Notes under the pieces: model-generated
Database searches by the model: none
The model's input: only the letters and a program-made list of their open reading frames with translations
Told to the model about the DNA's origin: nothing
Virus record (IMG/VR): IMGVR_UViG_3300044513_002212
Coordinates: 1 to 63,349 of that record
Origin: a virus
Lineage: Duplodnaviria > Caudoviricetes
Direction: 5' to 3' (one strand)
DNA length: 63,349 nt
Part shown: piece after piece, positions 5,252-23,981 of the stretch
Layout of the letters: the number at the start of each line of letters is the position of its first letter
Position numbering within the stretch: the first letter of the stretch is position 1
Translations under genes and position numbers: made by a program

Positions 5252-5265
5252 TACTAGGTCTTCTT

Positions 5266-5339
5266 CGGGATGTAGCTCAGTTTGGTAGAGCACTCGCTTT
5301 GGGAGCGAGGGGCCGTAGGTTCGAATCCTATCATCCCGA
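5266..5339 (+). tRNA. tRNA-Pro(TGG)
   Basis: Acceptor CGGGATG/CATCCCG, anticodon arm CTCGC-TTTGGGA-GCGAG. Confidence 0.95.
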
Positions 5340-5356
5340 TTTTCCTACTATTATCC

Positions 5357-5575
5357 ATGGAAAAGATTACTTTGCAGCACCTTGAAGATCACTTTGATGA
5401 GATCTTTGAACAAGTAGAACAAGGAAAATCATTTCATATCATGACACCAGATGGCAAAGATATCATGATGGTCCCTACTGCGGAGGCTATTCAAGCATCA
5501 ATCGATGCTGGACTGGTCTCTCAAATGGATGATACTTACTTTGATATGTACCATACGACCAGCGAAGCCTCTTGA
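5357..5575 (+). CDS. Phd/YefM antitoxin-like small protein
   Basis: MEKITLQHLEDHFDEIFEQVEQGKSFHI..DGKDIMMVP resembles the Phd N-terminal domain; ATG at 5357 (5282 lies inside the tRNA). Confidence 0.55.
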   Translation: MEKITLQHLEDHFDEIFEQVEQGKSFHIMTPDGKDIMMVPTAEAIQASIDAGLVSQMDDTYFDMYHTTSEAS

Positions 5576-5623: not shown

Positions 5624-5851
5624 ATGTCTCACTCGGCGTTTGTTTCTAAGTTCAAGACCAATCTGAATCTTCTGCAATCTGCAGTGAATCGGGAAACGGA
5701 TCTCGAATTCCGCCACCCCAAGATTTACAAAAAGATTGTGAAGTACTACCGCAATCAGGGAGTTCAGTTTTATAATGATCCTGACGATGATTATGAACTC
5801 GTCCTTGATCTGATTGCAGCAGATCTTCAAACTGAAGGAGTACTCGCTTGA
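5624..5851 (+). CDS. Hypothetical cyanophage protein
   Basis: 75 aa ORF after promoter. Confidence 0.7.
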   Translation: MSHSAFVSKFKTNLNLLQSAVNRETDLEFRHPKIYKKIVKYYRNQGVQFYNDPDDDYELVLDLIAADLQTEGVLA

Positions 5852-6099
5852 CAAAGATTCTTCTTGAACGTTTTCCCTATCGATACGTCGAAGTGGGAAC
5901 TCTAGACAATGGGTTCCCCGACTATCGTATTCAGAAGGCAGATTCTTATACCAAACGGTATAGTGACATGTATCTTCTTGATAATCAGATGCAACTTCTG
6001 ACAGCTATCGAAGATTTTGAGTATACGAAATGGTTAGATCCTGATCGTGTTCCTTGTTATGTCAAAGATGATGTATCTTCCGACATGGAGAGTCGTTAA
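5848..6099 (+). CDS. Hypothetical cyanophage protein
   Basis: TTG start with GGAG RBS, overlaps the previous stop. Confidence 0.7.
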   Translation: MTKILLERFPYRYVEVGTLDNGFPDYRIQKADSYTKRYSDMYLLDNQMQLLTAIEDFEYTKWLDPDRVPCYVKDDVSSDMESR

Positions 6100-6115
6100 A
6101 AACCCTGGTGGAGCC
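6081..6115 (+). ncRNA. RNA module 1 (hairpin + UGG anti-acceptor; possibly a manA-motif part)
   Basis: CGAC-ATGGAGA-GTCG, TTAAAAA, CCC, TGGTGGAGCC; same layout as 6745-6781. Confidence 0.55.
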
Positions 6116-6116
6116 T

Positions 6117-6764
6117 ATGGCTGATGTTCAATTACTATTCCCAACCCCAATTTACCATGACCAACTAGACATCTCTGATGACGAACGGTCAAGAATCCAA
6201 TCTTATGTTGAACATTTAGATTGGATTATAGATACGGACATTCATAATCGTCCTAACGGACAATATCTGGATGTATTTGATGTGCTTGCACACAATCCAT
6301 TATCTAATCTTGCAACGATTATAGATAATCATATGCACGCTTTTGTGCATGATTTCTTACGAGTTTCAAGAAAACTTCAGGTAAAGAGAACTAACTCATG
6401 GGCAAACAGACACTATTTGAATGACTATTGTCATGAGCATCATCATTCAAACAGTATCTTTAGTGGTGTATACTATCTAAATATTCCACCCAATTCTGGA
6501 CCAGGAATTGTTTTCAAGAGAATGGGCCCTACTTGGACTAATGATACTTGGGAACTTAATGTAGATGAGTTGACCGCTCAAAATGAATATGTTCACCTAA
6601 AAAGAGTTAACACTAATATGTTACTCTTGTTCCCATCACACCTAACACACATGGTTCCAGCCTCCGAAACTGATGAACCTAGGTACTCCATTGCTTTTAA
6701 TTACTTTGTTTATGGGGAGATTGGTGATGGAACAAACATCTTACACGTCTCGGACAGACGTTAA
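6117..6764 (+). CDS. 2OG-Fe(II) oxygenase (LFPTP-type)
   Basis: LFPTP, HHHSNSIFSGVYY, LLFPSHLTHMV, RYSIAFN. Confidence 0.85.
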   Translation: MADVQLLFPTPIYHDQLDISDDERSRIQSYVEHLDWIIDTDIHNRPNGQYLDVFDVLAHNPLSNLATIIDNHMHAFVHDFLRVSRKLQVKRTNSWANRHYLNDYCHEHHHSNSIFSGVYYLNIPPNSGPGIVFKRMGPTWTNDTWELNVDELTAQNEYVHLKRVNTNMLLLFPSHLTHMVPASETDEPRYSIAFNYFVYGEIGDGTNILHVSDRR

Positions 6765-6790
6765 ACTTGCCCTGGTCGGGAGTGTTTCCC
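6745..6790 (+). ncRNA. RNA module 2 (hairpin + UGG anti-acceptor; possibly a manA-motif part)
   Basis: ACGTCT-CGGAC-AGACGT, TAAACTTG, CCC, TGGTCGGGA, then GGGA/TCCC hairpin. Confidence 0.55.
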
Positions 6791-6799
6791 CTTAAGAGT

Positions 6800-7051
6800 A
6801 TGGAAGAAAAACAATACCCATCCGCCTCCAAGCAGATGGCTAACCTAACTAAAACCGCTTTTGGTATAGTCAAAGAGTTTGTAAGTACTGGTGACTTACT
6901 TGTTCCAGATCATGTCAGAAACGCTAGGTTGCAGATCTGTTCTACTTGTCAATTTTATGATGAAGCAGAACACAGATGCATGGATTGCGGATGTTTTCTT
7001 TCCAATAAAGTACGATTCAGTGCTTCCAAATGTCCCTTAGACTTTTGGTAA
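6800..7051 (+). CDS. Small Cys-rich protein (DUF6171-like)
   Basis: RLQICSTC...CMDCGCFL..KV...SKCPLDFW. Confidence 0.65.
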   Translation: MEEKQYPSASKQMANLTKTAFGIVKEFVSTGDLLVPDHVRNARLQICSTCQFYDEAEHRCMDCGCFLSNKVRFSASKCPLDFW

Positions 7052-7140
7052 GGTTTCTTTGTTCCTAAAACAAAGTGGTGCGGATGGGGTTAACCCCGCC
7101 TGGTTTCCAATTTCCAGTCAAAGAATTGGTGGCGAGCCTG
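7051..7140 (+). ncRNA. wcaG RNA motif-like element (two tandem pseudoknots, each followed by UGGYG)
   Basis: AGG/CCT + CTTTGTT/AACAAAG then TGGTG; GGGGT/ACCCC hairpin; CTGG/CCAG + CCAATTT/GAATTGG then TGGCG; lies upstream of a WcaG-type epimerase cluster in a cyanophage. Confidence 0.75.
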
Positions 7141-7159
7141 CAAACCTACAGAACAAAAA

Positions 7160-7747
7160 ATGGAACCAGCATATTCAGACTTTATAGGCGTATATAAAGA
7201 CGCTATCAATCCTGATCTGTGTGATTGGCTGGTTAACTATATGGATAAATCACAATACGTGCTTTCTCGTAATAGTCTTCACGTTCAGGACAAACAGATT
7301 TGTTTAGATTCTTTTTCTCCTAGTGAAGCCCAAGACTTGATGGACGGCGTTAATGCTTGTCTTATATATTATACGAAAAATTATCCATATCTAACTAACT
7401 TTAATTATGTAAGTTCTCTTACGTTACTTCAAAAGACAAATCCAACGGAAGGATATCATATCTTTCATGGTGAAAACTTAAATTGGAATGCATCTGACAG
7501 GACTATGGCTTGGATGGTGTATTTAAATGATGTCAAAGAAGGTGGTGAAACGGAATTTTTATATCAAGGTATAAAAGTAAAGCCTGAAAAGGGAAAGGTA
7601 GTTATATGGCCTGGATCTTATACACATATCCACAGAGGTAATCCTCCTGGATCACCAAAATATATTGCTACTGGATGGTATCAATGTGACATTGGATTGG
7701 ATCAGTTAAGAGTTAGAGCTCATGGAATAGAACTACCAGAAGAATAA
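7160..7747 (+). CDS. 2OG-Fe(II) oxygenase (prolyl-4-hydroxylase-like)
   Basis: GYHIFHGE, WMVYLNDV.EGGETEF, WP...THIHRGNPP..KYIATGW. Confidence 0.85.
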   Translation: MEPAYSDFIGVYKDAINPDLCDWLVNYMDKSQYVLSRNSLHVQDKQICLDSFSPSEAQDLMDGVNACLIYYTKNYPYLTNFNYVSSLTLLQKTNPTEGYHIFHGENLNWNASDRTMAWMVYLNDVKEGGETEFLYQGIKVKPEKGKVVIWPGSYTHIHRGNPPGSPKYIATGWYQCDIGLDQLRVRAHGIELPEE

Positions 7748-22680: not shown

Positions 22681-22793
22681 GAAACTCAAATCCCCAAAAC
22701 TCAGTGCTTGACAAGAATATGGGTTCGGGTTATACTAAATAAGTCAACGGGTTAAGAAACGTAAAGTTTGTTAATCACTTGTAACACCCCAAA

Positions 22794-22890
22794 CCGAGAC
22801 CTATAGGGTGTATAAATCACGTCTCTCATATCCTCGCTAAGGGTGCGAGGAGCATAGTATCTCCACCATTTCCCTGATGGTCTTACTACC
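22794..22890 (+). ncRNA. PhotoRC-II-like RNA motif in the psbA leader
   Basis: GAGAC/GTCTC, CCTCGC/GCGAGG, AGTA..ACCAT/ATGGT..TACT stems directly upstream of psbA. Confidence 0.75.
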
Positions 22891-22901: not shown

Positions 22902-23981
22902 ATGGCTGCTACACTTTCACGTCAAAAACAATCGAATACTTGGGAACAGTTTTGCAACTGGGTAACCAGCACTGACAATCGTCTGTATGTTGGTTGGTTC
23001 GGGGTCCTCATGATTCCTTGCCTACTTGCTGCTACTATCTGTTTCATCGTCGCTTTCGTCGCTGCTCCCCCTGTGGACATTGACGGTATCCGTGAACCCG
23101 TCGCTGGTTCTCTCATGTACGGAAACAACATCATCTCTGGTGCTGTTATCCCCTCTTCTAACGCAATCGGTCTTCACTTCTATCCCATCTGGGAAGCAGC
23201 CTCTCTCGATGAGTGGCTCTACAACGGTGGTCCTTTCCAACTCGTTGTCTTCCACTTCCTGATTGGTATTTACGCCTACATGGGTCGTGAGTGGGAACTT
23301 TCTTACCGTCTTGGTATGCGTCCCTGGATCTGTGTTGCATATTCTGCTCCAGTCGCTGCTGCGAGTGCAGTGTTCCTTGTCTATCCTTTCGGTCAAGGTT
23401 CCTTCTCTGATGCGATGCCACTGGGTATCTCGGGTACTTTCAACTACATGCTTGTCTTCCAGGCAGAACACAACATTCTGATGCACCCCTTCCACATGCT
23501 GGGTGTCGCAGGTGTCTTCGGTGGTTCTCTGTTCAGTGCAATGCACGGTTCGCTGGTTACTTCCTCGCTGGTTCGTGAAACCACTGAGTCTGAGTCCCAG
23601 AACTATGGTTACAAGTTCGGTCAAGAAGAAGAGACTTACAACATCGTTGCCGCTCATGGTTACTTTGGTCGTCTGATCTTCCAATACGCTTCCTTCAACA
23701 ACTCCCGTTCGCTGCACTTCTTCCTCGCAGCATGGCCTGTTGTCGGTATCTGGTTCACTGCTCTTGGTGTTAGCACCATGGCATTCAACCTGAACGGATT
23801 CAACTTCAACCAGTCTGTGATTGATTCGCAGGGTCGTGTTATCAACACCTGGGCTGACGTTCTGAACCGTGCTGGTCTGGGTATGGAGGTAATGCACGAG
23901 CGCAATGCTCACAACTTCCCTCTTGACCTTGCTGCTGCAGAGTCTACTCCTGTTGCACTCACCGCACCTGCAATCGGTTGA
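22902..23981 (+). CDS. psbA: Photosystem II D1 protein
   Basis: [14 protein letters not shown]...[13 protein letters not shown]; no intron. Confidence 0.99.

Follow-up and report, generated by a model that had tools for sequence, protein, structure and literature searches.

What is the role of a set of short structured RNA elements in a marine cyanophage, each of which ends in UGG followed by a different sequence that reads as the antisense of a tRNA 3' end? The window analysed here is the whole 63,349-base record IMGVR_UViG_3300044513_002212, a fragment of a T4-like Synechococcus cyanomyovirus with an estimated completeness of 32%, and the four elements, modules 1 to 4, lie between positions 6080 and 7143. 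The last two together make up a member of the wcaG RNA family. A first-pass annotation, made from the sequence alone, had described an array of four pseudoknot RNAs, each followed by a sequence complementary to a different tRNA 3' NCCA end, and every sequence feature that it listed for the four modules is present where it was placed. Judged from the sequences, the complementarity of the tails to mature tRNA 3' NCCA ends is specific and, taken as a set, beyond chance. We lean, with some reserve, towards the view that the modules are T-box-like "anti-acceptor" elements that would pair with uncharged host tRNA ends.

Host ends were taken from a picocyanobacterial genome (reached via psbA), whose 44 tRNA genes and transfer-messenger RNA (tmRNA, confirmed by ARAGORN and Rfam) give 40 distinct 3' ends. 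The tails, and a phage tRNA gene that bears on one of them, are as follows.

6106..6115, + strand: module 1 tail, UGGUGGAGCC, antisense to GGCUCC-A-CCA of host tRNA-Ala(GGC), Watson-Crick run of 10
6773..6781, + strand: module 2 tail, UGGUCGGGA, antisense to UCCCG-A-CCA of host tRNA-Pro(CGG) and phage tRNA-Pro(UGG), Watson-Crick run of 9
7076..7089, + strand: module 3 tail, UGGUGCGGAUGGGG, antisense to CCCCAUCCGC-A-CCA of host tRNA-Leu(CAG), run of 14; its first 12 nt also fit tRNA-Leu(GAG)
7130..7140, + strand: module 4 tail, UGGCGAGCCUG, matching 10/11 nt of tRNA-Arg(CCG) (mismatch at position 68) or tRNA-Arg(ACG) (mismatch at position 71)
5265..5340, + strand: phage tRNA-Pro(UGG), found by ARAGORN and Rfam

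The Ala-type and Leu-like characters that the first-pass annotation had assigned to tails 1 and 3 are borne out by the runs of 10 and 14 with host tRNA-Ala(GGC) and tRNA-Leu(CAG). Its 9/9 match between tail 2 and the end of the phage's own tRNA-Pro also stands, and extends to the host tRNA-Pro(CGG): the phage acceptor end, CAUCCCG-A, is identical to the host one, and CCA is not encoded. Relatives lengthen the Pro tail to UGGUCGGGAUG (11 nt) and keep it constant while phage tRNA-Pro acceptor stems vary widely; the host tRNA-Pro is the more general predicted partner of this tail than the phage tRNA-Pro. Tail 4 had been called Arg-like with G73. The C after its UGG does fit G73 of both Arg tRNAs, and the tail UGGCGAGC(CUG) gives a contiguous Watson-Crick run of 8 with tRNA-Arg(CCG), but one mismatch persists over 11 nt. 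Two more tails come from relatives: UGGUGGAGCUG is antisense at 11/11 positions to the acceptor end of host tmRNA, a partner that the first reading had already suggested, and UGGUGGGCUAU fits tRNA-Ile with one G.U pair.

The details of the match follow the 3' strand of the mature tRNA. The base after UGG tracks the discriminator, being U where the partner has A73 (Leu, Pro, Ala, tmRNA and Ile) and C where it is an Arg tRNA with G73. At wobble positions the tails complement the tRNA 3' strand (A against U70 of Ala, A against U71 of Arg-CCG, C against G68 of Arg-ACG) and not the tRNA's own 5' base; module 1, for instance, places A opposite U70 of tRNA-Ala rather than G, as in the tRNA's own G3. 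This argues for pairing over homology to tRNA 5' ends, and strand invasion would be favoured. Furthermore, in eight host gene copies, which cover the tRNAs for Leu, Pro, Ala, Arg and Ile, the gene end runs into T-rich sequence where CCA would stand. Since CCA is not gene-encoded in the host, the invariant UGG matches the mature RNA only.

Cofolding prefers the predicted partner for each module: the free-energy difference (ddG) was -13.0 kcal/mol for module 3 with tRNA-Leu (-3.1 to -6.6 with other tRNAs), -12.8 for module 1 with tRNA-Ala(GGC) (-2.1 to -7.1 with four other tRNAs), and -6.4 and -4.5/-5.2 for the remaining two, against 0 to -7.1 for other pairs, in an energy model that leaves aside tRNA tertiary structure, modifications and pseudoknots. 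The ends recur within the host family. The Leu 3' end is present in 58/61 genomes and both Arg ends are found again among the matches listed from the same 61-genome scan, while a hand count of 41 genomes gave Pro in 32, Ala in 32 and tmRNA in 33. The partner tRNAs read G/C-ending codons (Leu CUG/CUC, Arg CGG/CGC, Ala GCC, Pro CCG), which account for 24–51% of their families in the host and 2–15% in the phage.

When compared with a null of the same tail composition, the runs of 10, 9, 14 and 8 in modules 1 to 4 gave p = 0.004, 0.016, <6.7e-5 and 0.045. The Fisher combined p is ~4e-7, or 2.7e-4 without module 3, and a null built from the window's own 2315 TGG sites left the combined figure unchanged. 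The run of 14 is unique among those sites. Of the 16 tail classes in the arrays, 11/16 depart from a perfect fit to a host end at no more than one position in 11 nt, as against a mean of 1.41 (maximum 7) in 300 sets of shuffled-acceptor decoys, 4/16 when 144 phage tRNA ends are used and 0/16 with reversed decoys. This is the comparison of homologous tails with shuffled controls that the first-pass annotation had proposed, and the complementarity exceeds chance in it.

Some of the counts pull the other way. Runs of at least 9 occur at 21/2315 TGG sites of the window where ~9 are expected, most of them in coding GGUGGAGA-like sequence, and the runs of modules 1 and 2 (9–10) are individually ordinary in this window. 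The tail classes share descent and are not independent; counted as families, 5/8 match. Five of the 16 classes have no partner within one mismatch: the tail of module 2 in the window when taken over 11 nt, GACCCCC, GAUCCUC, GGUCAUA and GCGUCGA. The common Arg-type tails GAGCCUG and GUGCAUG each keep one mismatch throughout, and no host tRNA with a perfect end for them was found among the matches listed from the 61 genomes. Finally, the host set consists of one genome plus pattern scans.

We turn to the scaffolds that precede the tails, those of modules 3 and 4 (type I) being pseudoknots.

7049..7143, + strand: wcaG RNA (RF01761), modules 3 and 4 together; cmscan 96.9 bits against a gathering score of 42, model positions 1–98
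7051..7075, + strand: module 3 H-type pseudoknot; S1 AGG 7051–7053 / CCU 7064–7066, S2 CUUUGUU 7057–7063 / AACAAAG 7069–7075; pseudoknot finder
7100..7129, + strand: module 4 H-type pseudoknot; S1 CUGG 7100–7103 / CCAG 7114–7117, S2 CCAAUUU 7107–7113 / GAAUUGG 7123–7129; pseudoknot finder

The link to wcaG, offered earlier as something to check, was confirmed by the covariance-model scan. Weinberg et al. (2010, PMC2864571) introduced the family as a candidate riboswitch found in marine metagenomes and in cyanophages, the accessible text naming no ligand for it, and the parts of later papers that we could consult repeat this description. The window holds a full-length member, placed upstream of 2OG-oxygenase and wcaG-type epimerase genes as the family is described (PMC2864571). 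The curated structure differs from ours in that it marks three hairpins only, and modules 1 and 2 fall outside the model; the three hairpins are supported by compensatory changes, both sides having changed in 11/24 predicted pairs in an alignment of 44 sequences. In the Rfam consensus UGGUGCGGAuGGG is among the most conserved (upper-case) blocks, yet it is unpaired in the curated structure. The P2 hairpin (7086–7097) takes the last 4 nt of the module 3 tail as its 5' strand.

Both pseudoknots that the first-pass annotation had drawn were recovered by the pseudoknot finder, and that of module 3 is also backed by covariation. Its S1 triplet pairs with the loop in 28/39 sequences, compared to 13.7 +/- 2.7 when triplets are permuted, and 0/2000 permutations reach 28. 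This was done by script, as the MAFFT alignment misaligns the first loop, and 5/44 sequences were dropped for an S2 mismatch. S2 of module 3 and S2 of module 4 both carry compensatory changes in the 44-sequence alignment. S1 of module 4 is invariant in the collected set because the search pattern fixed it; type-I relatives with the UGGCGUGCAUG tail do have compensated S1 variants. More generally, type-I pseudoknots with at least 10 paired bases, in many S1/S2 combinations, stand upstream of 54–100% of Leu and Arg tails and of at most 1.6% of shuffles.

Modules 1 and 2 (type II) are built on a hairpin.

6080..6108, + strand: module 1 scaffold; hairpin CGAC 6081–6084 / GUCG 6092–6095, loop AUGGAGA, A-rich linker UUAAAAA, CCC 6103–6105, UGG
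6745..6775, + strand: module 2 scaffold; hairpin ACGUC 6745–6749 / GACGU 6757–6761, loop UCGGACA, linker, CCC 6770–6772, UGG

The two are alike in hairpin, UUAAA and CCCUGGU, and both fit the general type-II description of a 4–5 bp hairpin with a 7-nt NYGGRNR loop, an A-rich linker, C and UGG. A covariance model of the type-II scaffold without tails, R1, was built from 53 modules, with module 1 left out and module 2 in the training set; in the window it gave 33.5 bits (E 2.5e-9) for module 1 and 41.5 bits for module 2, the next unrelated match being at 9.7 bits. The hairpin has a covariation score of 0.326 versus 0.070 in shuffles, a value equalled by 0/500 shuffles, and its four core pairs are paired in all 53 distinct modules, three of them with compensatory changes. 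The hairpins proposed earlier for modules 1 and 2 are therefore supported by covariation, but the further pairing of the loop GG with the downstream CCC is not: it amounts to 2 bp in the window, and across relatives GG(G)/CC(C) shows no covariation. It is missing from the roughly one third of type-II modules that have AC instead of CC before UGG. As a separate observation, GG is invariant in type-II loops (alignment columns 8–14), and an AUGG loop goes with CC before UGG while ACGG goes with AC, which simple GG/CC pairing does not explain.

At its initial thresholds the pseudoknot finder detected neither module 1 nor module 2, and it became noisy once these were relaxed; at a score of at least 8 it reported 13% of Pro-type modules versus 3% of shuffles, and 31% of Ala-type modules versus 7%. 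Because this rate only modestly exceeds that of shuffles, we claim no pseudoknot for type II. In Rfam, at E up to 10, there was no wcaG match at 6081–6115 or 6745–6790 and no other family for these two modules, and at E up to 1 no family matched the single modules of relatives. In the R1 search of five complete genomes, matches under 20 bits appeared to be noise and no further tail classes emerged. Modules 1 and 2 are best described as single copies of a hitherto undescribed hairpin-UAAAA-CC(C)UGG module, predicted to be a sister to wcaG.

A pattern scan of IMG/VR returned 80 loci, 58 of them with real wcaG arrays, and 5/6 named sources bring the total to 63 arrays. The order of the tails is nearly fixed: 33/63 arrays read Pro, Ala, Leu, Arg, some of them with one more module upstream, and 4/63 have the exact order of the window (Ala, Pro, Leu, ArgA); a same-strand tRNA gene lies within 150–200 nt in 14/63. 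Single modules are spread more widely, blastn with the Sf-FS3 tandem matching 140 phage records. In Sf-FS3 itself (locus positions 1393–1460) both single modules stand in tandem with no gene between them, and in S-WAM2 and S-PM2 wcaG is immediately preceded by a Pro-type module. S-IOM18, S-H25 and S-RS29 carry a near-identical module between tRNA-Leu and tRNA-Thr genes, with no open reading frame (ORF), and in S-CREM1 (locus positions 1216–1430) wcaG, manA and abiF RNAs all lie between tRNA genes. From the shared layout of scaffold, UGG and tail, the four modules are best read as one modular family of cyanomyovirus RNA elements in which wcaG is a fused Leu and Arg pair. The array announced by the first-pass annotation is accordingly there as regards the common layout, but it is not contiguous, with genes at 6117–6764 and 6800–7051 intervening, and modules 3 and 4 form one unit.

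Several other features of these loci may be recorded here. The module that follows tRNA-Leu in S-IOM18, S-H25 and S-RS29 was considered as a manA RNA and rejected, the manA fold being different and larger; one hairpin loop of the manA consensus reads GUGGUG. In S-PM2 (locus positions 860–950) and S-WAM2 (2440–2535) another type-I module, with the tail UGGCGUGCAUGUG and a GC-rich hairpin behind it, stands immediately before tRNA-Gly(UCC). IMG/VR loci such as L121, L139, L173 and L178 have a fifth module, a pseudoknot with S2 GAAAAUG/UAUUUUC, ~660–680 nt upstream of the wcaG anchor, with the tails UGGUGACCCCC or UGGUGAUCCUC; these tails, UGGUGA(C/U)CC..., matched no tRNA end in the host set. GGUGAUCC would be antisense to GGAUCACC near the 16S rRNA 3' end.

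The modules are set among the following genes.

5848..6099, + strand: gp206-like conserved cyanomyovirus gene, 83 aa; from the ORF list, with blastn homologues annotated gp206 in syn9, S-CAM1 and S-WAM2
6117..6764, + strand: 2OG-Fe(II) oxygenase gene, between modules 1 and 2; Pfam PF13759, 67.7 bits
6800..7051, + strand: gene for a small Cys-rich protein, between module 2 and the wcaG RNA; from the ORF list
7160..7747, + strand: second 2OG-Fe(II) oxygenase gene, downstream of the wcaG RNA; Pfam PF13640, 41.5 bits
7816..8856, + strand: NAD-dependent epimerase/dehydratase gene of the 'wcaG' type, namesake of the motif; Pfam PF01370, 133.2 bits

The gp206-like gene matched no Pfam family, and its final codons and stop TAA (6097–6099) overlap the hairpin of module 1; the scaffold of module 2 likewise overlaps the stop TAA at 6762–6764. 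The oxygenase gene at 6117..6764 is a cassette, absent in Sf-FS3, where modules 1 and 2 adjoin and a homologue of the Cys-rich protein gene comes after the tandem. The Cys-rich protein has a weak DUF6171 match (23.1 bits, under the cut-off of 27). Contigs from the RNA libraries of one study join module to module (6062>6749, 6073>7073 and 6109>7052), and such joints in variant phages imply that the intervening genes behave as exchangeable cassettes. Near-identical sequence over 5898–7172 is also present in RNA-library Logan contigs of one study, contigs which cannot show transcription, ends or processing. With window positions 5900–7300 as query, blastn matched 372 phage records, nearly all of Synechococcus or Prochlorococcus phages. 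In total the window has 8 tRNA genes, PhotoRC-II RNA and psbA, and its phage-borne isoacceptors include Leu(UAG), Arg(UCU) and Pro(UGG). Arrays are repeatedly bordered or split by 2OG-Fe(II) oxygenase genes, with two in the window (6117–6764 and 7160–7747) and two beside the wcaG RNA of Sf-FS3 (locus positions 1691–2883). The PhotoRC-II RNA (22772–22865, 80.4 bits) is directly upstream of psbA (22902–23981). A small ORF after tRNA-Pro (5357–5575) has homologues in Sf-FS3 and S-WAM2 annotated as Phd/YefM (prevent-host-death) antitoxin; it gave no Pfam match here at E up to 0.01.

How would the modules act? On the reading that we favour, the 3' strand of each scaffold abuts UGG-N plus 5–10 nt that are antisense to the acceptor 3' strand, discriminator and CCA of one host RNA. 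In the window the partners would be tRNA-Ala(GGC), tRNA-Pro(CGG), tRNA-Leu(CAG/GAG) and tRNA-Arg(CCG/ACG), and relatives would add tmRNA and probably tRNA-Ile. The single-stranded ACCA of an uncharged tRNA would dock on UGGN in the fashion of the T-box bulge. The docked end would then stack on the scaffold helix, where the conserved loop 1 (GUUUC) or the A-rich linker may leave no room for an aminoacyl group, and pairing would finally extend into the acceptor stem, the tail competing by Watson-Crick replacement of the tRNA's wobble pairs. The outcome would be a cis-acting switch, in which tRNA binding remodels downstream structure or ribosome access. We favour action in cis because the Leu tail can alternatively pair with CCGCCU in wcaG and because the tail of module 1 holds GGAG, which precedes the next gene by 3 nt (AUG 6117). 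The CU of the CCGCCU strand is shared with the CUGG strand of the next pseudoknot, hence the two structures would be mutually exclusive, which is the arrangement a switch would need; all pairs of this helix are invariant, so that covariation is uninformative.

The nearest known system is the T-box, in which the bulge forms four pairs with NCCA and A76 stacks on a helix beside a steric sieve (PMC7583486). The modules resemble it in having UGGN complementary to NCCA, with N matching the cognate discriminator, in a duplex that would stack on an adjacent helix near a conserved element able to exclude an aminoacyl group, and perhaps in the predicted intramolecular helix that wcaG might use for switching. 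They differ in that specificity would come from 5–10 extra acceptor-stem pairs, which T-boxes are not known to make, and in a scaffold that is a pseudoknot or hairpin, not a bulged helix; moreover they are phage-encoded, arrayed and often within tRNA operons. With E values up to 10 allowed, the T-box Rfam model gave no match in 5900–7300. Neither Stem I nor a specifier turned up, with no search aimed at a specifier, and modules of ~30–45 nt leave little room for one. The L15 GGU-RCCA contact of RNase P RNA also reads the tRNA CCA end by base pairing, and the tRNA cluster of phage T4 encodes unexplained small stable RNAs (species 1 and 2); the modules are likened to these by description only, and neither is known to pair into the acceptor stem.

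Apart from the counts given above and the simplifications of the energy model, a few points weigh against T-box-like pairing with host tRNAs. Pairing beyond ACCA requires opening a 7-bp acceptor stem, which no T-box is known to do. Arrays that lie inside tRNA clusters or ahead of tRNA genes misfit a simple switch in a 5' untranslated region; in S-PM2 and S-WAM2 the array leads straight into a tRNA gene, not an ORF. The architecture of manA RNA is different from that of the wcaG modules. In addition, the phage arrays were gathered by patterns that include parts of the motif; the high conservation of the Leu tail is, however, also apparent from the Rfam consensus, which is independent of them.

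The most direct objection concerns wcaG itself. RNAalifold predicts that GG and GCGG in the Leu tail pair to an invariant CCGCCU, and all six pairs are invariant or nearly so in the 44 sequences. Intramolecular pairing in this GGUGCGG/CCGCCU helix could on its own account for half of the conservation of the Leu tail. The first-pass annotation had asked whether UGG is needed within the RNA; part of the Leu tail, its GG included, can indeed enter this helix, which counts against tRNA pairing but could equally represent the 'off' state of a switch. The conservation of the tails might have causes within the RNA itself, such as this helix, tertiary contacts or the binding of a small molecule or protein in the manner of an ordinary riboswitch, and the tRNA complementarity would then be a coincidence aided by composition. 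In favour of this, wcaG was put forward as a candidate metabolite riboswitch (PMC2864571), both the tails and tRNA 5' strands are G-rich and G-initial, the window has many runs of 9–10, the match of the Arg tails is imperfect and 5/16 classes are unmatched. We consider this a genuine though lesser possibility: the helix covers just 6 of the 12–14 Leu-tail positions, at least four tails match as many distinct host ends, each with the correct discriminator base, the UGG fits a CCA that no gene encodes, and neither composition-matched nulls nor shuffled or reversed decoys reproduce the signal.

If the tails do pair with tRNA ends, the main alternative to a switch in cis, and a close second to it, would be a role in trans, in which RNAs released from phage tRNA operons trap host tRNAs. 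It is supported by the location in tRNA operons, by the fixed set of four tails and by partners that read codons preferred in the host and rare in the phage, which brings its own Leu, Arg and Pro isoacceptors. In its most developed form the arrays would be multi-specific traps that use ACCA as a toehold to invade the acceptor stems of deacylated host tRNAs (and of tmRNA in some phages), so that host translation and ribosome rescue are throttled while the phage tRNAs Leu(UAG), Arg(UCU) and Pro(UGG) serve A/U-rich codons. We hold this full scenario to be rather improbable.

We rate lower still the idea that the modules chiefly punctuate a hyperplastic region, as recombination sites for cassette exchange and/or as signals for translation start and stop or RNA processing, with no tRNA role. 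The genes between modules are present in some phages and absent in others, the library contigs join one module to another, modules 1 and 2 overlap stop codons and module 1 has GGAG ahead of an AUG. All this may be a consequence of the modules and not their function, modules are also found between tRNA genes without an ORF, and both the covariation of the scaffolds and the antisense match of the tails to host tRNA ends are left unexplained.

Two last explanations have very little chance. TGG followed by antisense to a specific host tRNA 3' end is the signature of the primer-binding site of retroviruses and LTR retrotransposons, where the acceptor stem must open, and the tails could in principle let a host tRNA 3' end prime reverse transcription or DNA synthesis. 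Such a role is unlikely because neither the window record nor five complete array-bearing phage genomes gave a match to the RVT_1 reverse transcriptase; in addition the complementarity is 9–14 nt and not 18, four different tRNA specificities stand in tandem, and a stable pseudoknot immediately 5' of the tail would lie directly in the extension path. The integration site of T7-like cyanophages is reportedly a tRNA-Leu gene. Such phages integrate into cyanobacterial genomes (PMC8776855) and the antisense of the Leu tail has 11 nt in common with the host gene, so the tails might be antisense fragments left over from tRNA genes, or else attP-like cores that correspond to host tRNA genes, but the invariant UGG corresponds to a CCA absent from host genes, the tails differ from the gene's 5' strand at wobble positions, similarity ends at the acceptor strand with no tRNA model matching the tails at E up to 1–10, the core identity is far below the length of known att sites, and no longer collinear similarity to a CCA-encoding tRNA gene was seen. 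Antisense T-arm homology past the tails was looked for and rejected, with only 2–4 G's and no loop similarity for Leu and none for Pro.

Our searches of the literature on wcaG RNA, orphan riboswitches, cyanophage acceptor stems and phage noncoding RNA with a CCA end found no link to tRNA, subscription journals and supplements being largely outside their scope. As far as that literature goes, the proposed tRNA partner and the modular logic are new, while wcaG itself is a known family. wcaG has been an orphan riboswitch candidate since 2010, and the 3' ends of host tRNA-Leu and tRNA-Arg, as a defined macromolecular ligand, would make it directly testable. It would also take its place in a larger modular family, whose single modules are found in ~140 phage records. 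If the binding is real, these would be the first RNAs outside the T-box family to sense or capture tRNA, encoded by phages, structurally unrelated to T-boxes and using acceptor-stem invasion for specificity. tRNA supply decides the outcome of infection between cyanophages and marine Synechococcus (PMC11726456), and real binding would add an RNA layer to this tRNA-centred interplay.

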